Shown one piece after another: positions 494 through 23,719 of a stretch of DNA of 64,000 nt. Made by a program: the position numbers and the translations under genes. Position 1 is the stretch's first letter, and each line of letters starts with the position of its first letter. The notes beneath the pieces were generated by a model. The model was not told the DNA's origin, made no database searches, and saw only the letters and a list, made by a program, of their open reading frames with translations. The stretch comes from Squalus acanthias (taxonomy: Eukaryota): NCBI GenBank assembly GCA_030390025.1, contig CM059431.1, positions 116,872,001 to 116,936,000 on the forward strand, written 5' to 3'.

Positions 494-804
494 GCACTTG
501 GGTGTTTAATTGCTGTTTGTGTTACGCTTCCGTTACTCTGATGTCATATATTAAACTATTGTTTTCACCACTTTCCAGTCATGGCCAATTTAGTCTGCAA
601 CTTTGGAAGTGGCTTAGTGAGTTGGAGTGAATGGTGAGACATACATTACCTCCATAATGGTGGTCAGTGTGAAAGGAATGGCTTGGTCATTGTAGGGATG
701 CTTTATGATGATGCTGTGGGGTAGTGCCAACCTGGCTTAGCATATGGCAGTCATATGGGTGTACTGCCTGAAATTAAGTAAATCTGGCAATGATGAGCCC
801 ATCC

Positions 805-1076
805 AGCGTCGACAGTGGGGGAGGAGGAGCCTTTCTTTCTTTCTCTCTCCCACAGAGCGGTCGGCAGCGGGGAAGGAGGGGCGGACCTGGTTGGAGCGGC
901 AGAGGCCTGAGGTGAGTCATTAAAGGGAGGCCCGAGGCTCAGGTAGGCCTCAGACCAGCGTCGACAGCGGGGGAGGAGGAGCCTTTCTTTCTTTCTCTCT
1001 TCCACAGAGCGGTCGGCAGCGGGGAAGGAGGGGCGGACCTGGTTCGAGCGGCAGAGGCCTGAGGTGAGTCATTAAA
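805..1076 (+). repeat. Tandem 152-bp monomers in CR1 5' UTR (about 1.8 copies)
   Basis: agcgtcgacag...ggtgagtcattaaa starts at 805 and again at 957, near-identical. Confidence 0.93.
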
Positions 1077-1136
1077 CTCACCTACGTGGCCTTTTTCCCC
1101 AGCGGGGAAAGAGCTTCGCGGGCTTTTTCAAAGGCA

Positions 1137-1170
1137 GGGGGCGGGGCCAATTCATTGGTACCCGTATATA
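1137..1170 (+). promoter_or_regulatory. Candidate internal Pol II promoter (GC box, CCAAT/ATTGG, TATA-like)
   Basis: ggggcgggg-ccaat-tc-attgg-tacccg-tatata in canonical order about 190 nt upstream of the ORF1 ATG; motif evidence only. Confidence 0.45.
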
Positions 1171-1361
1171 GGTGGAGCGGTTGCTAAACCCGAGACACTA
1201 CACTAGTAGTGACTCCCACCCTCCCACCTCCTCTAACCTTTAGGGGTAGAGGGAATTTAAAAGGTATGTTCGATTTTATATTTTGTTTTCAGGGACTTAA
1301 CTCCTGGACCTAAGATAAATAAGTTTAAATTTTAGTAATAAAGTAACATAAGGGTTAAGTC

Positions 1362-2306
1362 ATGACAGGAAGCCTCGGACCCGTTTCATGCTCCTCCTGT
1401 GCCATGTGGGAAACCAGGGACACTTCCAGTGTCCCTGACAACTACGTGTGCGGGAAGTGTGTCCAGCTGCAGCTCCTGACAGCCCGCATGGTGGTGCTGG
1501 AGCTGCGGGTGGACTCACTCTGGAGCATGCACGATGCCGAGAACTCGGTGAATCGCTCATTTAGTGAGTTGTCCACACCGCAGGTAAAGGCTAGGACAGA
1601 CAGTGAATGGGTGACCAAGAAGCAGGGCAATATCAGGAAGGTAGTGCAGGAGTCCCCTGTGGTCATCTCCCTCCAAAACAGGTATGCCGCTTTGGATACT
1701 GTTGGGGGAGATGGCCTACCAGGGGAAGGCACTAGCAGCCAGGTTCATGGCACCATGGCTGGCTCTGCTGCACAGCAGGGCGGGAAAAAGAGTGGCAGGG
1801 CTATAGTGATAGGGGACTCAATTGTAAGGGGAATAGACAGGAGTTTCTGTGGCCGCAACCGAGATTCCAGGATGGTATGTTGCCTCCCTGGTGCAAGGGT
1901 CAAGGATGTCTCGGAGCGGCTGCAGAACATTCTGAAGAGGGAGGGTGAACAGCCAGCTGTCGTGGTGCATGTAGGTACCAACGATATAGGTAAAAAGCGG
2001 GAAGAGGTCCTACAAGCAGAATTTAGGGAGCTAGGAGCTAAATTAAAAAGTAGGACCTCTAAGGTAGTAATCTCTGGATTGCTACCAGGGCCACGTGCTA
2101 ATCAGAATAGAGAGAACAGGATAGTGAGATTGAATATGTGGCTTGAGCAGTGGTGCAGGAGGGAGGGATTCAAATTCCTGAGGCATTGGAACCAGTTCTG
2201 GGGGAAGTGGGACCTGTACAAAAGGGACGGTCTGCACTTGGGCAGGACTGGAACCGATGTCCTCGGGGTAATATTTGCTAAAGCAGTTCGGGAGGATTTA
2301 AACTAA
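1362..2306 (+). CDS. CR1 ORF1p: CxxC-CxxC zinc finger, leucine-zipper region and SGNH/GDSL esterase domain
   Basis: 314 aa; CSSC...CGKC, then esterase blocks IGDS, PGA, VGTND, DGLH all present. Confidence 0.93.
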   Translation: MTGSLGPVSCSSCAMWETRDTSSVPDNYVCGKCVQLQLLTARMVVLELRVDSLWSMHDAENSVNRSFSELSTPQVKARTDSEWVTKKQGNIRKVVQESPVVISLQNRYAALDTVGGDGLPGEGTSSQVHGTMAGSAAQQGGKKSGRAIVIGDSIVRGIDRSFCGRNRDSRMVCCLPGARVKDVSERLQNILKREGEQPAVVVHVGTNDIGKKREEVLQAEFRELGAKLKSRTSKVVISGLLPGPRANQNRENRIVRLNMWLEQWCRREGFKFLRHWNQFWGKWDLYKRDGLHLGRTGTDVLGVIFAKAVREDLN

Positions 2307-2353
2307 TATGGCAGGGGAATGGGAACCTATGTAGCAAAACAGGGGGAAGTAAT

Positions 2354-5290
2354 ATGCAGTCAGAAACAAATGTTAGAAGGGTGAGAAACAATAGGGGAAG
2401 GCCGAGTAAACAAAGGCAAGAAACACAAAGGGCCATACTAAATCATAAGTCTAAAAGGACAAAGGATGTTAATAAAACAAGCCTAAAGGCTCTGTGTCTT
2501 AATGCAAGGAGTATCCGTAATAAGGTGGATGAATTGACTGTGCAAATAGATGTTAACGGATACGATGTGATTGGGATTACAGGGACGTGGCTCCAGAACA
2601 ATCAAGGCTGGGAACTGAACATCCAGGGGTATTCAACATTCAGAAAGGATAGAATAAAAGGAAAAGGGGGTGGGGTAGCATTGCTGGTTAAAGAGGAGAT
2701 TAATGCAATAGCTAGGAAGGACATCAGCTTGGAGGATGTGGAATCAATATGGGTTGAGCTGCAGAACACCAAAGGGCAGAAAACGTTAGTGGGAGTTGTG
2801 TACAGACCTCCAAACAGCAGTAGTGAGGTGGGGGAGGGTATGAAACAGGAAATCAGAGGTGCGTGCAAAAAAGGCACGGCAGTTATCATGGGTGACTTTA
2901 ATATGCATATAGATTGGGCTACTCAAACTGGAAGCAATACGGTGGAAGAGGATTTCCTGGAGTATTTAAGGGATGGTTTCCTAAACCAATATGTTGAGGA
3001 ACCAACTCGAGGGGAGGCCATCCTGGACTGGGTGTTGTGTAATGAGGAGGGACTAATCAGCAATCTTGTGGTACGAGGCCCCCTGGGGAAGAGTGACCAT
3101 AGTATGGTGGAGTTCTACATTAGGATGGAGAAGGAAACAGTTAAGTCAGAGACCATGGTCCAGAACTTAAATAAGGGCAACTTTGAGGGTATGAGGCGTG
3201 AATTGGCGAGGTTAAATTGGCAAGCGATATTTAAGGGGCTATCAGTGGAAGGGCAATGGCAGACATTTAGAGATCGCATGGATGAACTACAACAATTGTA
3301 CATCCCGGTCTGGCGTAAAAATAAAAAAGGGAAGGTGGCTCAACCATGGCTAACAAGGGAAATCAGGGATAGTATTAAAACCAAGGAAGTTGCATACAAA
3401 TTGGCCAGAAGTAGCAGCAAACCCGGGGACTGGGAGAACTTCAAAACTCAGCAGAGGAGGACGAAGGGTTTGATTAGGGCAGGGAAAATAAAATATGAAA
3501 GGAAGCTTGCAGAGAACATTAAAATGGACTGCAAAAGCTTCTATAAATATGTAAAAAGAAAGAGGTTAGTAAAAACAAACGTAGGTCCCCTACAGTCGGA
3601 AACAGGGGAAGTCGTAATGGGGAACAAGGAAATGGCAGATCAATTGAACAAGTACTTTGGTTCGGTGTTTACTGTGGAGGACACACACAACCTGCCGGAA
3701 ATAAAAGGGGTCAGAGGATCTGGTAAGAGGGAGGAGCTGAGGGAAATCCTTATTAGTCGGGAAAAGGTATTGGGGAAATTGATGGGACTGAAGGCTGAAA
3801 AATCCCCGGGGCCTGATGGTCTGCATCCCAGAGTACTTAAGGAGGTGGCCTTGGAAATAGTGGATGCATTGACGATCATTTTCCAACATTCCCTAGACTC
3901 TGGATCAGTTCCGATGGAGTGGAGGGTGGCCAATGTAACCCCTCTTTTTAAAAAAGGAGGGAGGGAGAAAGCAGGGAATTATAGACCGGTCAGCCTGACA
4001 TCGGTCGTGGGTAAAATGATGGAAGCAATTATTAAAGATGTCATAACAGACCATTTGGAAAGTGGCGACATGATAGGTCCAAGTCAGCATGGATTTGTGA
4101 AAGGGAAATCATGCTTGACAAATCTTCTGGAATTTTTTGAGGATGTTTCCAATAGGGTGGACAGGGGGGAACCAGTAGATGTGGTGTATTTGGACTTTCA
4201 GAAGGCCTTCGACAAGGTCCCACACAAGAGATTGGTGAGCAAAGTTAAAGCACATGGGATTGGGGGTAATGTGTTGACGTGGATTGAGAACTGGTTGGCA
4301 CACAGGAAACAAAGAGTAGGAGTAAATGGGTACTTTTCAGAATGGCAGGCAGTGACCAGCGGGGTACCGCAGGGTTCGGTGCTGGGACCCCAGCTGTTTA
4401 CATTATATATTAATGATTTGGACGAAGGGATTAAATGTAATATCTCCAAATTTGCGGATGACACTAAATTGGGAGGCAGTGTGAACAATGAGGAGGATGC
4501 TAGGAGGCTACAGAGTGACTTGGACAGGTTGGGTGAATGGGCAAATGTATGGCAGATGAAGTACAATGTGGATAAATGTGAGGTTATCCACTTTGGTGGT
4601 AAAAATAGAGAGGCGGACTATTACCTGAATGGTGGCAGATTAGGGAAAGGGGACGTGCAACGAGACCTGGGCGTCATGGTACATCAGTCACTGAAGGTGG
4701 GAATGCAAGTGCAGCAGGCAGTCAAGAAAGCAAACGGAATGATGGCCTTCATAGCAAGGGGATTTGAGTACAGGAGTAGGGAGGTGATGCTACAGTTGTA
4801 CAGGGCCTTGGTGAGGCCACACCTGGAGTATTGTGCGCAGTTTTGGTCTCCTAACTTAAGGAAGGACATTCTTGCTATTGAGGGAGTGCAGCGAAGGTTC
4901 ACTAGATTGATTCCTGGGATGGCCGGACTGACATATCAAGAAAGATTGGGTCAACTGAACTTGTATCCTCTGGAGTTCAGAAGAATGAGGGGGGATCTTA
5001 TAGAGACATTTAAAATCCTGACTGGTTTAGACAAATTAGATGCGGGCAGAATGTTCCCAATGGTAGGGAAAACTAGAACCAGGGGTCACAGTCTAAGGAT
5101 TAAGGGGAAGCCATTTAGGACTGAGCTGAGGAGGAACTTCTTCACCCAGAGAGTGGTGAATCTATGGAATTCTCTTCCACAGAAGGTTGTTGAGGCCAGT
5201 TCGCTAAATATATTCAAAAGGGAGTTAGATATAACACTCACAACTAGGGGGATCAAGGGGTATGGCGAGAAAGCAGGAATGGGGTACTGA
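2354..5290 (+). CDS. CR1 ORF2p: APE endonuclease plus reverse transcriptase
   Basis: 978 aa; CLNARS, VYRPP, MGDFN, SDH (APE); SPGPDG, NYRPVSL, QHGF, DFQKAFD, GVPQGSVLGP, FADD (RT). Frame is open from 2282. Confidence 0.97.
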   Translation: MQSETNVRRVRNNRGRPSKQRQETQRAILNHKSKRTKDVNKTSLKALCLNARSIRNKVDELTVQIDVNGYDVIGITGTWLQNNQGWELNIQGYSTFRKDRIKGKGGGVALLVKEEINAIARKDISLEDVESIWVELQNTKGQKTLVGVVYRPPNSSSEVGEGMKQEIRGACKKGTAVIMGDFNMHIDWATQTGSNTVEEDFLEYLRDGFLNQYVEEPTRGEAILDWVLCNEEGLISNLVVRGPLGKSDHSMVEFYIRMEKETVKSETMVQNLNKGNFEGMRRELARLNWQAIFKGLSVEGQWQTFRDRMDELQQLYIPVWRKNKKGKVAQPWLTREIRDSIKTKEVAYKLARSSSKPGDWENFKTQQRRTKGLIRAGKIKYERKLAENIKMDCKSFYKYVKRKRLVKTNVGPLQSETGEVVMGNKEMADQLNKYFGSVFTVEDTHNLPEIKGVRGSGKREELREILISREKVLGKLMGLKAEKSPGPDGLHPRVLKEVALEIVDALTIIFQHSLDSGSVPMEWRVANVTPLFKKGGREKAGNYRPVSLTSVVGKMMEAIIKDVITDHLESGDMIGPSQHGFVKGKSCLTNLLEFFEDVSNRVDRGEPVDVVYLDFQKAFDKVPHKRLVSKVKAHGIGGNVLTWIENWLAHRKQRVGVNGYFSEWQAVTSGVPQGSVLGPQLFTLYINDLDEGIKCNISKFADDTKLGGSVNNEEDARRLQSDLDRLGEWANVWQMKYNVDKCEVIHFGGKNREADYYLNGGRLGKGDVQRDLGVMVHQSLKVGMQVQQAVKKANGMMAFIARGFEYRSREVMLQLYRALVRPHLEYCAQFWSPNLRKDILAIEGVQRRFTRLIPGMAGLTYQERLGQLNLYPLEFRRMRGDLIETFKILTGLDKLDAGRMFPMVGKTRTRGHSLRIKGKPFRTELRRNFFTQRVVNLWNSLPQKVVEASSLNIFKRELDITLTTRGIKGYGEKAGMGY

Positions 5291-7164
5291 GGTAGCATGT
5301 TCAGCCATGAACGCATTGAATGGCGGTGCAGGCTCGAAGGACCGAATGGTCTACTCCTGTACCTATTTTCTATGTTTCTATGTTTCTATCCCATGCCTCC
5401 CGGGCAGCAATGTGCTCGGGTGCCGGTGGGATCTGGAACGCAGGTTTCTTCTGCTCCTCCTCCTCCTTGTCTTCCAGCTGATGCTCCTCCTCCTCCTCCT
5501 CCTCCTCTGAAGAGGCTGTGTGCTCAGAGCTTTCTCCTCACGCAGCACTAATCCTCGCTGCTGCGCTATGTTGTGCAGGGCGCAGCAGACCACGACAATT
5601 CTGGAGACCTGGTGCGTACTGCAGGGCTCCTCCAGATCTGTCAAAACATCTGAAGTGCATTTTCAGCAGGTCTATTGTCTGCTCTATGACATACCTGGTG
5701 GACATGTGGCTTTCATTATATCTCTCCTGGGCCTCAGTACTTGGCCTCCTCAAGGGTGTCATGAGCCACGTCTTCAGTGGATTGCCCTTGTCTCCAAGCA
5801 ACCAGACGGAAAGTTTGTTTAAGGTGTAAAGAGCTGAGGGAGGGTGTACTGGCGCAGCATGAAAGAGTCATGGCAGCTGCCTGGGAATTTGGCACATACA
5901 TGGATGATGATCTTCATTTGGTTGCAGACAAGCAGCACATTGAGGGAGTGGAAGCCCTTGCAGTTGCCAAACACTTCTGGGTGATGCTGGGGTGCCCTGA
6001 TGACCACATGTGTGCAGTCGATGACGCCCAGCACCCATGGGAAGCCAGCCAGAGCGGCAAAGCTGAACGCCCACTCAGTAACACTGGCATCATCAGTGGC
6101 AAAGTTGATATAATTGGCTTACTAGTCAAACAGGGCATCGGTGACCTGTGTGATGCATCTGTGAGTGGCCGACTGCGAGATGCTGCAAATGTCTGCTGCA
6201 CATTCCTGGAAGGAGGCTGAGGCGAAGAAGTTGAGGGCGCTGGTGACTTTGACAGCCACTGGTAAGGCGTGTCCACCATGTCCTCTGGGCTGCAGGTCTT
6301 GGTCCAGAAAGCTGCAAAGGTCTGCGACGACCTGGCATGATAGCCTGAGCCACCTTTGGCACTGCTGCTGAATGATGTTGAGGAAGCTCATCCTCTGCCT
6401 GTATATCCTGTGTTGGGGGTATTGCCTCCGGCGCGGTGCAGCCCTGCGCTGCTGCCCTCTGTCCTGTGCAGCATCAGGTCATTGAAGAGAAGGTTGGTGG
6501 TGTTGTTGTTGGTGCTGCTGGTGTTGGGGCTCATCGTGGTCCAATTCTGAGGACTAAGGTGAAACAGTATAAATGGCACCCGTGCTGATGTAATAGATGG
6601 CAGGTCAAGTAGATATGAGAGAAGCAATCTGTCAGTGGTGTGATAGGTTGTAGCAATGAGGTGTCATTGGTTCCCGAATTTTCTGAAAACACTTGCAACC
6701 TCTAGAAAGCTAAATCTGTGCTGACAATGCACTCAGCAACAGCATCTGCCTTAGCAAAGTAACCAGGTGTAAAGTGGGAGTATTTATTGTGCTTTCCATG
6801 CTGTGCAGTAATGAGTTCCATGAATGGCCACTGAACTTCTGCCTCAGGTTCACAGATGTGGTTCCTGAGCTGCGTGATTCCCGTGCTCATGCAATGAAAA
6901 TGGAAAGGTAGGGTTCAAAAGAGGCTTAAGGATCTGACAACTACTTAATAATTATCTAAATTAGGTCGGCCACCTCTGCCGTCCTGGCAAACGCGCCCGA
7001 GTAAAAGGCGCGAGGAGACGGGATGACAGCGGGTTCCCAACCCACTCTGATTTATTTCAACTTTCACTCCAGACCCGCCTCCAATCCCGCACGCATAGCA
7101 ACAGGAAAATTCTGACCATGACCTCTGACTTGCTAGTCCAGTACCATAACCACTAGGCTAGTAT

Positions 7165-19252: not shown

Positions 19253-20949
19253 TGTCTCTTGGCAATCAAAGTTATGAAGGTCAAAAACCAAAGTACCTGC
19301 AAAGTTATGATCAGTAGCCAAAACTACCTCACACAGCGTTGACTCAATGCAGAAGTCTCTCTTTCTCTCTCTCTGAATCTCTCTCTCTCTCTCTCAGAAC
19401 GAGTGGTGCAAAAATGTCAACCACAGAGAAAGACAGGAAGAGGCCCCCTTTAAATAGCGCCCCCCCAGCCCCCCAGCGACTGGGGAGCGTTCCAGTCTTC
19501 CGGTCGTTGGTTGCACCAGGCGGAAAGGATGGGGGCGCAACTCAATTTCCGCTCCGGGGCACCACAAGGGCGTTGCACCCTCGTATGACATCAAGATCTG
19601 CGTGCGCAGGAGATCGCGGCGGTAAAGTTTAGCGCCACCGCAAAATGTCTAGTTAATTTTGCGAGTGGCACAAACATCGCTGCGCCTGGGCGCTAGTTGC
19701 TTTGCGCCCCATTAGCGCCCTCTTAAGGCGCTAACGGGAGGCGCAACCAACTGAATTTTTCCCCCAAAAACTCCACGGGAAAAGTGATCCATCCATGGCT
19801 AACTAAAGAAGTTAAGGGGAGCATTAGGTTGAAAGAAGAAGCTTATAATATTGCGAAGAATAATAGTAAGCCTGAGTATTGGAAGAGTTTCAGAAACCAG
19901 CAAAGGATGACCAAAAAATTGATAAAAAGGGAAAAAATAGAATGAGAGAAAACTAGCAAGAAATATAAAAACAGGTTGTAAGAGCTTCGACAAGTATGTA
20001 AAAAGGAAGAGAGTAGCAAAAGTAAATGTTGGTCCCTTAGAGGCTGAGACAGTAGAAATTATTATGGGGAATAAGGAAATGGCAGAAACGTTAAACAAAT
20101 ATTTTGTATCTGTCTTCACAGTAGAAGACACAAAAAGCATACTAAAAATGGTGGGGAACCAAGGGTCTAATGAGGGTGAGGAACTTAACGTAATTAATAT
20201 AAGTAGAGAAAAAGTACTAGAGAAACTAATGGGACTAAAAGTGGACAAATCCCCTGCACCTGACGTTCTACATCCTAGGGTTCCAAACGAGGTGGCTGCA
20301 GAGATAGTGGATGCATTGGTTTTGAGCTTCCAAAATTCCCTAGATTCTGGAACGGTCCCAGTGGATTGGAAGGTCGCAAATGTAACACCACTATTCAAGA
20401 GAGGAGGGAGAGAGAAAACAGAGAACTACAGGCCAGTTAGCCCGACATCAGTCATCGGGAAAATGCAGGAATACATTGTTAAGGAAGTGGTGTCATGGCA
20501 CTTAGAGAATCATAACATGATTAGGCAGAGTCAACATGGTTTTATGAAAGGGAATTCGTGTTTGACAAATTTATTAGAGTTTTTTGAGGATGTAACTAGC
20601 AGGGTAGATAAAGGGGAACCAGTGGATGTAGTATATTTGGATTTCCAAAAGGTATTTGATAAGGTGCCACATAAAAGGTTATTACACAAAATAAGGGTAC
20701 ATCGGGTTGGGATAATATAGTAGCATAGCTGGAGAATTGGTTAATGGACAGAAAACAGAGAGTAGGGATAAACGGGTCTTTTTCAGGTTGGCAGGCTGTA
20801 ACTGGTGGGGTGCCGCAAGGATCAGTGCTCGGGTCTCAGCTTTTTACAATCTATATTAATGACCCAGATGAAGGGACTGAGTATAATGTATCCAAGTTTG
20901 CTGATGTTACAAAGCTAGGTGGGACTGTAAGCTGTGAGGAGAACACAAA

Positions 20950-21746
20950 GGGGGTGAAATTCGGCTCCTTTGCACCTGCCGTTAGCGCCTCCAGGGGGCG
21001 CTAACGGGGCACAAAGGGGTTATCACCTGGGAGGGGACGAAAAAAGTACCTCCTGTGAAATTCGGTGGGGCGTTGCTAAGGCGCTACCCGATAGCACCGC
21101 GCCCCCACCGGTAGTGCCCCAGGCTGCCGCGCCTCCGGTGCTGATGTCATCGCTATGGCGGTGGCCCCTTAGCACCCCATTGCATCCCCTTACTGCCCCA
21201 CAGCAGGAATTTGGTTGTGCCCCATGAGGCTGCCATAGGCAGTGTCAGCGCCAGCCTCGCTGGGCCGACCTTCGCTCGCGGGGCGGTAGTTAAAGGGGAG
21301 GTGCAGCCATGACCCATCTTTTTTTGGCTGACCTCCAGGTCGGCCCTCCATAGTGTGCCGTGGCATGGTCCTGGCCGCCACCGCACAACCCGGCACCGCA
21401 TCTTGGCGCCGGGCTGCTGCCATGGCACCATGCCGTCCTGGTAGCCTTGTTGGGGCCATCGGAGGCCCTGCAGATTGCGCAGCGGCCCTCCCCTTTAACT
21501 GTAGGGGAGGGGAGTTGAAACGCAGCAGCACTCCACCGAGCCTCCGTGGGGCGCTGTCAATCATGCCCCGACGTCGCCTCGGTTACCACCCCACCAGGAA
21601 GTGGAGCGCCCGACATTGTGCTTTAATTCCTGGGCGGGGCAATAAGGCAAATTTCGCGGTGGGGGCGGGATATCTTTGCCAGGCGGAGATGTCCCGCCTC
21701 ACCAGTGTTACCGCCCCGAAACGGGGCGCGACCGAATTTCGCGCCC
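20950..21746. mobile_element. Harbinger family A MITE (797 bp, GC-rich)
   Basis: TIRs gggggtgaaattcgg / ccgaatttcgcgccc; AAA TSD at 20947-20949 and 21747-21749; CR1 frame restored on removal; ttagcgcc/ggcgctaa motifs. Confidence 0.92.
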
Positions 21747-23719
21747 AAAGAGTCTGCAAAGGGATATAGGTAGACTAAGTAAGTGGGCAGTAAGGTGGCA
21801 GATGGAGTATAATGTAGGGAAATGTGAGGTTATTCACTTTGGTAGGAAGAATAGAAAAACAGAATATTTTTTAAATGGTGAGAAACTTTCAAATGTTGGT
21901 GTTCAGAGAGATTTGGGTGTCCTTGTGTAAGAAACACAGAAAGCTAGCATGCAGGTACAGCAAGCAATAAGGAAGGCAAATGGCATGTTGGCCTTTATTG
22001 AAAGGGGGTTGGAGTATAAGAGTAACGAAGTCTTGCTACAATTATATAGGGCCTTGGTGAGACCACACCTGGAGTACTGTGCACAGTTCTGGTCTCTTTA
22101 TCTAAAGAAGGATATACTTGCCTTGAAGGTGGTGCAACAAAGGTTCACTAGATTGACTCCTGGGATGAGAGGGCTGTCCTATGATGAGGGATTGTATAGA
22201 ATGGGCCTATAATCTCTGGAGTTTAGAAGAATGAGAGGTGATCTCATTGAAATATATAAGATTCTGAAGGGGATTGACAGGGTAGATGCTGAGAGGTTGT
22301 TTCCCCTGGCTGGAGTGTCTAGAACTAGTGGGCATAGTCTCACGATAAGGGGTCGGCCATTTAAGACTGAGATAAGGAGGAATTTCTTCACTCAGCGGGT
22401 TGTGAATCTTTAGACTTCTCTGCCCCAGCGGGCTGTGGATGCTGAGTCTTTGAATATATTCAGAGCTGAGATAGATAGATTTTTGGACTCTAGGAGGAAT
22501 CAAGTGATATGGAGATCGGGCGGGAAAGTGGAGTTGAGGTCGATGATCAGCCATGATCTTATTGAATGGCGGAAAAGGCTCGAGGGGCTGTATAGTCTAC
22601 TCCTGCTGCTATTTCTTATGTTCTTATGTTCTTAAGTCCAGTGGCAGATACCCTCATTTACATATGTTGCGATTGTCCAGCAGCATGGGCACACATGTTA
22701 CGGGAAGGCCTCAGATGGCAATAAAACTGGAGTGCAGCCATTACTGGACAGCATCTGCCTCAATATGCAGGTCTCAAAACTGCTGTGCCAAATCAAAATC
22801 AAAAATGCAGCGTCAATGGAAATCAATGAAAATTAAAATCAAGTGCTTTCTATAACGGCCGGCCAATCTGCAACACTGGTTCTACACACTTGGGTAGCAA
22901 GTTGCAAATCTATCTCAATGTGTTCATGAAGGGAGGGAAGAAAACTGGTAAGAAAAAAACGTTTCCTAAAACTTCATGCATAATCTAATTATCACACTTG
23001 GGCAGATATTTAATTGTTACCTTTGTTGTCTAATATCCTTAATTAAAGGCTATGGCCACTAATTTCACAAGACATTGAAAAAAGAAGAAAAAGTCTCCCC
23101 TGTTTTATTAGAAACGTTTAAACAAATTAATGGCAATATGTGTCGGAGTAGTAACATATTGAGACAGTTATTATGAGTAAGGATGTATTTGAGCTGTTGA
23201 GAGTCAGATCTGAGCCAATTACGGTTAATACCATCAAGAATAATAACTGCATATTTTGAATGTAAATTTGACAAAAGAAATATTAACCATAGCACCAAAG
23301 TCATTACAGATGGTTTATATGGCCAAGCACAAAAACAGAGCATTGTACAAAAGATAAAGGGAGTGCTAATAAACTCATAATTAATGAAAGTTAAAATAAA
23401 AGACTTATAACTATGATTGTCAGAGATGTCTCATCATTATAGTTAAAAAGGGCTCCTTGGCAGTGAAGATATATCCTGCTGAATAATATATGCAGACAGA
23501 CCATGTTAATCTTGTGCAATGTGGAGACTTAGATAGCATATTTTTGTCTTTGTATTAATTTTGATCAAAAGAAGACTTGAACAAACAAGATGGAACCAAG
23601 AAAGACTAGTAGAAATTTTTTGCAGTCTATTCATCCATTTATAAATATTACTTTGAATCTTCCTTCCATCCTAAAATGGGATCACGGAAATTAGCAAATA
23701 TAATTGACACATACGAGGG

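Follow-up and report, generated by a model that had tools for sequence, protein, structure and literature searches.

The CR1 element and its ORF1/ORF2 junction

The window, the whole 64,000-nucleotide stretch of Squalus acanthias DNA analyzed here, contains a full-length cartilaginous-fish CR1 LINE at 803–5389 (Table 1). The element bears the hallmarks of CR1: a 3' microsatellite tail (TTTCTATG), no poly(A) and a 5-bp target-site duplication. ORF1 is a GDSL/SGNH esterase (Pfam PF13472, E 5e-13) that matches the ORF1 protein in PDB entry 4C1B (E 6.5e-33), and the ORF2 domains are Exo_endo_phos and RVT_1 (matches to PF03372, PF14529 and PF00078). Canonical vertebrate CR1 LINEs, as described in PMC13343379 and PMC3905857, likewise combine an esterase ORF1, an APE-RT ORF2 and a microsatellite tail. 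In a quick version of an ORF1 homologue tree, the window protein clusters with shark and ray proteins, and by eye the junction resembles the shark CR1 consensus rows in the supplement of PMC13343379. No second copy of ORF1 was found within the window.

Table 1. Features of the CR1 element, in window coordinates.
Feature	Position	Strand	Remarks
Target-site duplication, left copy (CCCAT), 5 bp	798..802	+	Identical 5 bases at both element ends
CR1 5' UTR	803..1361	+	Begins with a 122-nt duplication (family D1; 98% identity, spacing 152)
ORF1, 314 aa	1362..2306	+	N-terminal CxxC..CxxC motif; SGNH esterase with GDS and DGLH; terminal D-L-N-stop
Slippery heptamer T_TTA_AAC (putative), X_XXY_YYZ phase	2297..2303	+	Final two ORF1 codons plus one base
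ORF1 stop TAA, immediately 3' of the heptamer	2304..2306	+	TAG, TAA or TGA in relatives
ATG closest to the ORF1 stop	2308..2310	+	+1 frame, 8-codon ORF
G-rich element, candidate unstructured frameshift stimulator	2314..2323	+	GGGG occupying +11..+14 and a second GGG +18..+20, counted from the heptamer; putative function
-1-frame linker, heptamer to endonuclease motif	2303..2491	+	Stop-free; 31–86 codons in relatives
First in-frame ATG of ORF2	2354..2356	+	Codon 20 counted from the heptamer; position not conserved
ORF2 body, without stops	2492..5290	+	APE endonuclease (Pfam match ~2546–3100), reverse transcriptase (~3959–4618)
3' UTR, terminal TTTCTATG repeats	5291..5389	+	Read from the sequence
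Target-site duplication, right copy	5390..5394	+	Matches the left copy

The 3' end of ORF1 reads GAG GAT TTA AAC TAA. The original prediction had placed T_TTA_AAC in X_XXY_YYZ phase directly before the ORF1 stop, and ORF2 in the -1 frame, open from 2282 with its first ATG at 2354; sequence and phase bear out both statements, and the ORF2 frame stays open to 5290. An out-of-frame ATG at 2308 had been overlooked, and it cannot start ORF2 because it lies in the +1 frame with only eight codons open. A fusion of ORF1 and ORF2 across the junction would measure 314+995=1309 aa. In a related subfamily, the linker region measures 172 bases, against 214 here, and the difference of 42 is in frame.

The junction 9-mer is notable for its position, not for its mere occurrence: the window contains two matches where 0.41 are expected, a count reached in 5 of 100 shuffles, and the second match lies in DNA without a CR1 match. 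Along the ORF2s of four elements, X_XXY_YYZ is found in frame at 3 of 3493 codon positions and TTTAAAC at none, and for a given Leu-Asn ending ORF1 codon usage predicts T_TTA_AAC with a probability of 0.012.

Conservation of the heptamer, the -1 phase and the ORF1 C-terminus

We analyzed the window together with those 17 of 47 metagenome loci that span a vertebrate-type junction; among the remaining 30, three are termite-type and 27 were dropped, as they end before the ORF1 stop or lack an ORF1 C-terminal match. Exact TTTAAAC stands at the end of ORF1 in 15 of these 18 loci, which are related by descent and, for the metagenome copies, derive mostly from a single sample; the three exceptions (L006, L018 and L046) are decayed or deleted. 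The heptamer is present in all six copies with a single-frame esterase that is stop-free to its end, while the 300 nt upstream are only 50–81% identical among loci and the stop codon varies. The termite-type loci (L036, L037 and L042) contain no heptamer. Scans of viral_contigs, genome_contigs, plasmids and phages returned no usable CR1 junctions; L001, L003 and L051 were non-CR1 false positives and L002 a decayed fragment.

Published CR1 consensus sequences (PMC13343379, supplement table 2) have an identical junction. Within the first 400 nt of each consensus in that supplement, 18 of 23 matches to TTTAAAC plus stop, a motif-selected set, lie at the end of ORF1, with hosts comprising chimaera, sharks, rays, coelacanth, bowfin, halosaur, frog, lizard and crocodilians. 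A motif-blind search of the supplement by DGLH-coding 9-mers found TTTAAAC at 8 of 8 readable ORF1 ends, and none of seven matches to the control TTTAAAT plus stop was at a junction. Of 213 variants in contigs of four runs, none of the 40 that were listed falls within 2297–2305, a sample that does not show invariance.

In 9 of the 10 loci that show both heptamer and endonuclease, the endonuclease follows in the -1 frame and the linker is free of stops. The linkers total 408 codons, and there is likewise no stop in the 123 codons ahead of the first in-frame Met (shuffle P 10^-2.6). Upstream of the heptamer, the -1 frame is closed within five codons in 9 of 15 loci, and ORF2 therefore cannot simply start there. 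We rejected a -2 slip, as each of the nine linkers contains stops in the +1 frame. The original prediction would have failed if other CR1 families had lost the heptamer or the phase, or if young copies had stops ahead of ORF2. Instead, heptamer and -1 phase are kept across shark, sturgeon-type and amniote-type loci, the heptamer recurs in the published vertebrate consensus sequences, and such breaks are confined to two decayed copies: L013, with stops within the linker, and L033, with the heptamer present and the endonuclease out of phase. By these comparisons, the putative slippery site is clade-wide in vertebrate-type esterase CR1s.

The ORF1 proteins carry the same signature. In 81 of 132 homologues the tail terminates in Leu-Asn at a length of 22–33 residues, and in three more at 39; in the vertebrate-type clades this holds for 39 of 42 dereplicated rows. 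None of 45 residues preceding Leu-Asn has codons unable to end in U, so that Glu, Lys, Gln, Met and Trp are absent there; these residues number 2/45 at position -6 and 3/45 at position -7, and their absence before Leu-Asn could partly be a helix-face effect. A distant ORF1 clade terminates in Gly-Asn, preceded by Gln in 9 of 10 cases, and another in Lys-Asn. These Q-G-N and x-K-N endings, in putative CR1 clades known from proteins alone, are compatible with G_GGA_AAC and A_AAA_AAC, which together with U_UUA_AAC are three of the four shiftiest heptamers on mammalian ribosomes (PMC5009743). DNA of the two clades was not found in scans of viral_contigs and genome_contigs. The signature is missing from ZfL2-1-like esterase elements, which terminate in R-T-I, from a 12-row distant clade and from two termite-type CR1s.

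It could be argued that ORF1p merely requires a C-terminal Leu-Asn and that the DNA motif is inherited baggage. Leu-Asn is indeed invariant in alignments A1 and A3, the rows of which were picked from proteins with this ending. The synonymous positions are fixed as well, however, at a chance of 0.012 per independent lineage; Leu-Asn tracks the stop codon at tail lengths of 22–39 residues and not a position in the fold; the ZfL2-1-like esterases do without it; and the conserved G-run described below lies outside ORF1. An explanation by protein constraint only is thus already largely refuted, and we consider it very improbable.

A G-run at fixed distance and the search for a stimulator

The original prediction had noted no clear pseudoknot, only a G-rich stretch. 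No local structure was detected downstream of the window heptamer (four fragments, z 0.13, -0.43, 0.53 and -0.14), and the G-rich stretch is itself conserved at a fixed distance. G occupies positions +11 to +15 in 13/14, 14/14, 14/14, 13/13 and 12/13 loci, respectively, behind a variable spacer (+3 to +10). A stem-loop 5–9 nt downstream was not found in 13 loci (local folding z -1.4 to +1.5), a duplex scan of the loci gave no shared long-range pairing partner, and folding predicts a G-quadruplex in just 2 of 13 loci. A C-rich ORF1 stretch ~650 nt upstream scored well as a pairing partner in several loci but was rejected because it corresponds to a proline-rich segment and is not the best partner in L004, L008, L020, L027, L039 or the window.

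In PRRSV (PMC5009743), nsp1-beta/PCBP stimulate the nsp2 frameshift through CCCANCUCC, located 11 nt 3' of the shift site. The CR1 G-run starts at the same spacing, within the 11–14 nt 3' of the shift site at which linear motifs act in protein-transactivated frameshifting of the PRRSV/cardiovirus type, and the two systems share a short unstructured purine- or pyrimidine-run motif at a fixed +11. They differ in that the PRRSV motif is C-rich and the CR1 motif G-rich, in their heptamers, and in that a trans-acting protein in CR1 is only a candidate. Based on this analysis, the G-run would most likely stimulate the putative slip as linear RNA bound by a protein, rather than through a local stem-loop.

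Expression of ORF2

We propose, with fair confidence, that ORF2 of esterase-type CR1 LINEs is translated through programmed -1 ribosomal frameshifting, giving a predicted ~1309-aa esterase-EN-RT fusion in the present element; an esterase + EN + RT fusion of about 1300 aa had been predicted originally, and comparison between elements supports it. Most ribosomes would complete ORF1 at ...L-N and terminate, yielding abundant ORF1p, and a minority, with tRNA-Leu and tRNA-Asn on U_UUA_AAC, would slip back one base, skip the stop and continue through the variable linker to translate the endonuclease and reverse transcriptase. This would yield a Gag-Pol-like esterase-EN-RT fusion with the junction D-L-N/L-I-W-Q-G-N-G, and the stimulator would be the G-run at +11, as linear RNA with a bound protein. 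We infer the slip, the fusion protein and the stimulator role from the conserved features above; in hosts ranging from sharks to birds and crocodiles, the copying enzyme of CR1 elements is probably produced by such a fusing slip. Among longer proteins searched, no natural in-frame CR1 fusion was credible; P0254 and P0032, single ray gene models that cross the junction as F-K-L, probably derive from decayed copies.

The start of ORF2 bears on the main alternative. Conservation of the ORF2 ATG had been put forward as a check, and the AUG is not conserved across loci. Five loci (L007, L008, L009, L010 and L039) have an in-frame AUG 2 nt behind the ORF1 stop, and a UAAUG stop-start overlap is found in 1 of 15 loci (L028) and in 3 of 18 consensus junctions (ScyCan_CR1-1a, SquAca_CR1-17a and SquAca_CR1-6c; PMC13343379 supplement). 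The window junction contains no SART1-type UAAUG, and an in-frame AUG is absent within five codons in the window, L004, L012, L013, L020, L027, L029 and L033. L004, a sturgeon-type copy 97% identical to a sturgeon protein, and L027 have no Met at all before the endonuclease motif. Annotated ORF2 N-termini are uninformative here because gene callers force a start.

Termination-reinitiation, which we judge unlikely, would have ribosomes stop at the end of ORF1 and resume -1-frame translation at an AUG or near-cognate codon close by, held by TTTAAAC and the G-run, with ORF2p as a separate product. It has precedents in SART1 (UAAUG reinitiation) and L1 (AUG-independent reinitiation), as reviewed in PMC3894237, PMC2881922 and PMC10275272, which share with CR1 a bicistronic LINE RNA and an ORF2 coupled to ORF1. 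It retains some probability because an in-frame AUG adjoins the stop in several lineages, as UAAUG or stop-nn-AUG; a restart exactly at the stop would likewise keep the linker open, and local folding of the junctions found no structured stimulator. Against it, the window and seven loci offer no in-frame AUG within five codons, the closest AUG in the window being out of frame, and the RNA structure 3' of the stop expected of SART1-type reinitiation was not found in the window or 13 loci. Neither an exact in-phase X_XXY_YYZ nor a switch of endings among L-N, Q-G-N and x-K-N is predicted by reinitiation, and in CR1 it is the heptamer, not the AUG, that is conserved. In AUG-bearing lineages, reinitiation may operate alongside frameshifting.

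A signal unrelated to decoding would be either a TATA-like TTTAAA with a G-box, acting as an internal promoter from which ORF2 alone is transcribed, or a splice acceptor or branch point at the end of ORF1. The resemblance of TTTAAA to a TATA box and of the G-run to a GC box speaks for it, and in many copies the site ends in TAG, a possible acceptor. Such a signal would require neither phase locking to the ORF1 stop nor an open frame before the first AUG, L004 and L027 provide no AUG ahead of the endonuclease, and a pyrimidine tract is absent, as is AG in the TAA and TGA variants. We give this explanation hardly any weight.

A -1 frameshift would place CR1 beside several known systems. Viral cassettes with U_UUA_AAC, such as that of the coronavirus IBV, which has the same heptamer as CR1 (PMC5009743), and retroviral or LTR gag-pol junctions likewise combine an in-phase slip site with an abundant upstream protein and a rare polymerase fusion, the two products being putative in CR1. 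Unlike these, CR1 is a non-LTR retrotransposon with an SGNH esterase instead of Gag, and no stem-loop was found 5–9 nt downstream. Penelope-like elements, also non-viral, join ORF1 to the RT by a frameshift with a pseudoknot (PMC8557442); they differ from CR1 in their GIY-YIG domain and their telomerase-like RT, and the pseudoknot may also set them apart, the duplex scan of the CR1 loci having given no shared partner.

Translation of LINE ORF2 has been called an open question (PMC3894237, PMC5009743), with reinitiation, from L1 and SART1, as the working model. Frameshifting is not mentioned in the main texts of PMC13343379 and PMC3905857, where ORF2 is handled as a separate product, and our literature search, the reach of which did not extend to the original CR1 descriptions, found no prior proposal of CR1 frameshifting. 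If frameshifting is correct, CR1 has a retrovirus-like solution for ORF2 expression, its ORF2p is mis-annotated, and the real enzyme bears the ORF1p zinc finger and esterase, which could explain recruitment of EN-RT to the RNP or to membranes; ORF2 cloned from its first ATG may then yield the wrong protein in assays of active CR1. More tentatively, a -1 frameshift may have been kept in the dominant non-mammalian-vertebrate LINE clade since before the shark/bony-vertebrate split, fusing a membrane-binding esterase to EN-RT and driven by an unstructured G-run stimulator of a kind not described before, recognised by ORF1p itself or by a host protein that binds G-runs; we regard this wider reading as possible but doubtful. 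If the reading of the G-run holds, it would amount to non-viral protein-controlled frameshifting and a switch on retrotransposition. The junction is a short cassette, suited to one reporter assay.

The slippery heptamer at CR1 junctions

ORF1 of the window CR1 ends T_TTA_AAC_TAA, exactly as claimed in the original prediction, and ORF2 lies in the -1 frame as described there, open from 2282 with its first ATG at 2354. By itself the 9-mer at this site is not rare (two in the window against 0.41 expected), but across four elements just 3 of the 3493 ORF2 codon positions hold an in-frame slippery heptamer. One metagenome scan gave 47 loci (L numbers), mostly amniote-type host DNA that we take to be bird-like, and many from a single sample. 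The vertebrate-type ORF1 end is spanned by 18 loci, window included, and TTTAAAC, predicted to be conserved, is exact in 15; of the exceptions, L018 lost the site through a deletion, and in L006 and L046 it has decayed. The heptamer is present in all six copies whose esterase is unbroken (window, L004, L008, L009, L010, L012), and five with frameshift damage in ORF1 (L007, L027, L029, L033, L039) have their phase from the last codons only. Identity between loci over the 300 nt upstream is 50-81%, the stop varies (TAG, TAA, TGA), as do the next seven bases, and the chance of T_TTA_AAC from codon usage is 0.012.

The predicted conservation of the -1 phase also held: among ten loci showing the endonuclease motif, nine have it in the -1 frame after a stop-free linker, with heptamer-to-endonuclease distances of 31-86 codons. 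The endonuclease of L033 is out of phase; L013 has stops in its linker, and no endonuclease is visible there. In a related subfamily from shark-like sequencing runs the linker is 42 nt shorter, with the frame kept. The heptamer is absent from the termite-type CR1 loci L036, L037 and L042. Vertebrate CR1 also turned up in bacterial records (the 'Pseudomonas aeruginosa' protein P0008 and the Providencia contig L002), which is host contamination of the assemblies.

Published consensus rows (PMC13343379, supplement table 2) were compared over their first 400 nt, junctions being judged by eye. TTTAAAC plus stop gave 23 matches in this motif-selected count, 18 at the ORF1 end (chimaera, sharks, rays, coelacanth, bowfin, halosaur, frog, lizard, alligator, crocodile) and five elsewhere, and TTTAAAT plus stop gave seven, none at the junction. 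A motif-blind check with DGLH-coding 9-mers matched 17 rows, nine at the ORF1 motif; eight of the nine could be followed to the end, each with the heptamer, as conservation among consensus sequences predicts. The row AldAff_Crack-2, named Crack yet matching the CR1-type protein P0056 at its ORF1 end, with the heptamer present, is possibly misclassified. Dogfish families SquAca_CR1-3 and CR1-18 have TTTAAAC plus stop in the 5' UTR as well.

Endings of ORF1 proteins

Of the 253 ORF1 relatives found in two protein searches, 155 carry a C-terminal DGxH-type motif and 132 of those have tails of 20-34 residues; the last two residues of these tails are L-N in 81, G-N in 10, T-I in 10, C-N in four and K-N in three. 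Tail length in L-N proteins runs from 22 to 39, and the residues preceding L-N are freely variable. In a tree computed by a quick method from 97 dereplicated esterases, last residues left out, L-N ends 39 of 42 rows of vertebrate-type clades; a distant 20-row clade mixes G-N, K-N, L-N and other endings, and neither the ZfL2-1-like group (esterase elements) nor a distant 12-row clade has a terminal N. Residues whose codon cannot end in U number 0/45 directly before L-N and 20/45 and 13/45 at the two preceding positions, but 2/45 and 3/45 at -6 and -7; Gln precedes G-N in 9/10. This bias is what U_UUA_AAC and G_GGA_AAC would require, which PMC5009743 places with A_AAA_AAC among the shiftiest eukaryotic heptamers. 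Because DNA scans for the G-N and K-N clades, which are known as proteins, found no sequence, their heptamers are putative.

Expression of ORF2 and the downstream G-run

We consider it probable that CR1 ORF2 is expressed by -1 frameshifting, which would yield a 1309-aa esterase-EN-RT fusion (EN-RT, endonuclease and reverse transcriptase) alongside abundant ORF1p. Reinitiation, possibly alongside frameshifting, seems rather unlikely: its main support is an in-frame ATG 2 nt past the stop in five loci, with UAAUG in L028 and three shark consensus rows, the arrangement of SART1, a LINE with termination-reinitiation, but the ATG closest to the window heptamer is out of frame, and L004, which shares 97% identity with a sturgeon protein, and L027 wholly lack Met before the endonuclease motif, so that the ORF2 ATG failed as a conserved feature. 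The linker of the window reaches its first Met at codon 20, that of L012 at codon 23, and the 123 codons preceding first Mets hold no stops (shuffle P 10^-2.6). A promoter or splice signal at the heptamer strikes us as very improbable, and constraint on the protein equally so.

The CR1 site would work like the viral -1 cassette and resembles it in sequence, but folding of the window and other loci found no stem-loop downstream; on that ground, and being known from sequence alone, it is not classed as a canonical member. Neither a long-range pairing partner common to loci nor a G-quadruplex as a general feature was found. G is near-fixed at +11 to +15 (bases after the heptamer) across loci; among the 18 consensus rows the G-run starts at +11 in five and +10 in four; rows riddled with deletions have it shifted, and two lack it. 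Since the third base of -1-frame codon 6 is fixed as G over K, R, L, S and Q codons (13/14) and Gly 7 is GGG in 13/13 (35% of Gly codons in ORF2), the G-run reads as a nucleotide-level signal. Its spacing matches the PRRSV stimulator, described in PMC5009743 as linear, protein-bound and lying 11 nt downstream of the shift site; by analogy, we would guess that the CR1 G-run is also protein-bound.

The recoding-type signal at CR1 junctions is real, clade-wide and apparently unreported, and is directly testable. In the older literature, overlaps of ORF1 with ORF2 are described for some LINEs, with speculation about frameshifting, which leaves the priority of the CR1 proposal uncertain. The literature searched, which excluded original CR1 descriptions and Repbase reports, contained no report of CR1 frameshifting; PMC13343379, PMC3905857 and PMC4120745 do not use the word 'frameshift' in their main text. 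In the parts covered, PMC5009743 (first 300,000 characters) lacks 'CR1' and calls LINE ORF2 expression unknown initiation, PMC3894237 names reinitiation and IRES and no frameshifting, and PMC2734521, PMC11835228 and PMC5408684 hold nothing relevant to CR1 frameshifting in those parts; frameshifts in Penelope-like elements are already published (PMC8557442).

The CR1 element and its surroundings

Features of the CR1 element in the window
Feature	Position	Strand	Details
Full-length CR1 LINE	803-5389	+	5-bp duplication on both flanks; TTTCTATG repeats at 3' end
ORF1, SGNH esterase	1362-2306	+	

ORF2 is stop-free and encodes an APE endonuclease and RT; the nearest named relative of ORF1 in the protein search is a sawshark protein (74% identity). 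Because base 2583, in a conserved endonuclease motif codon, differs from all contigs of the four sequencing runs compared, the endonuclease of the window element is probably impaired, although the copy is intact in other respects. The 5' UTR opens with a 152-bp tandem unit (803-1076), every unit holding a pyrimidine tract ending CAG plus GGTGAGT, resembling splice acceptor and donor; comparable GGTGAGT/GGTAAG words are present in 5' UTR consensus rows of shark CR1.

The element is nested within a decayed DNA transposon (1-438 and 5390-6500). A minus-strand DDE_Tnp_4 transposase fragment, presumably Harbinger-type, adjoins the insertion (hit at 5538-5867), and the plus-strand ORF at 1-438, which has no Pfam match, may be the transposon's partner gene, an arrangement we take to be the Harbinger layout. 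At least eight more 5'-truncated CR1 ORF2 fragments, 44-70% identical to the window ORF2, lie within 9081-60337, one of them covering 19766-22494 with a gap of ~800 bp.
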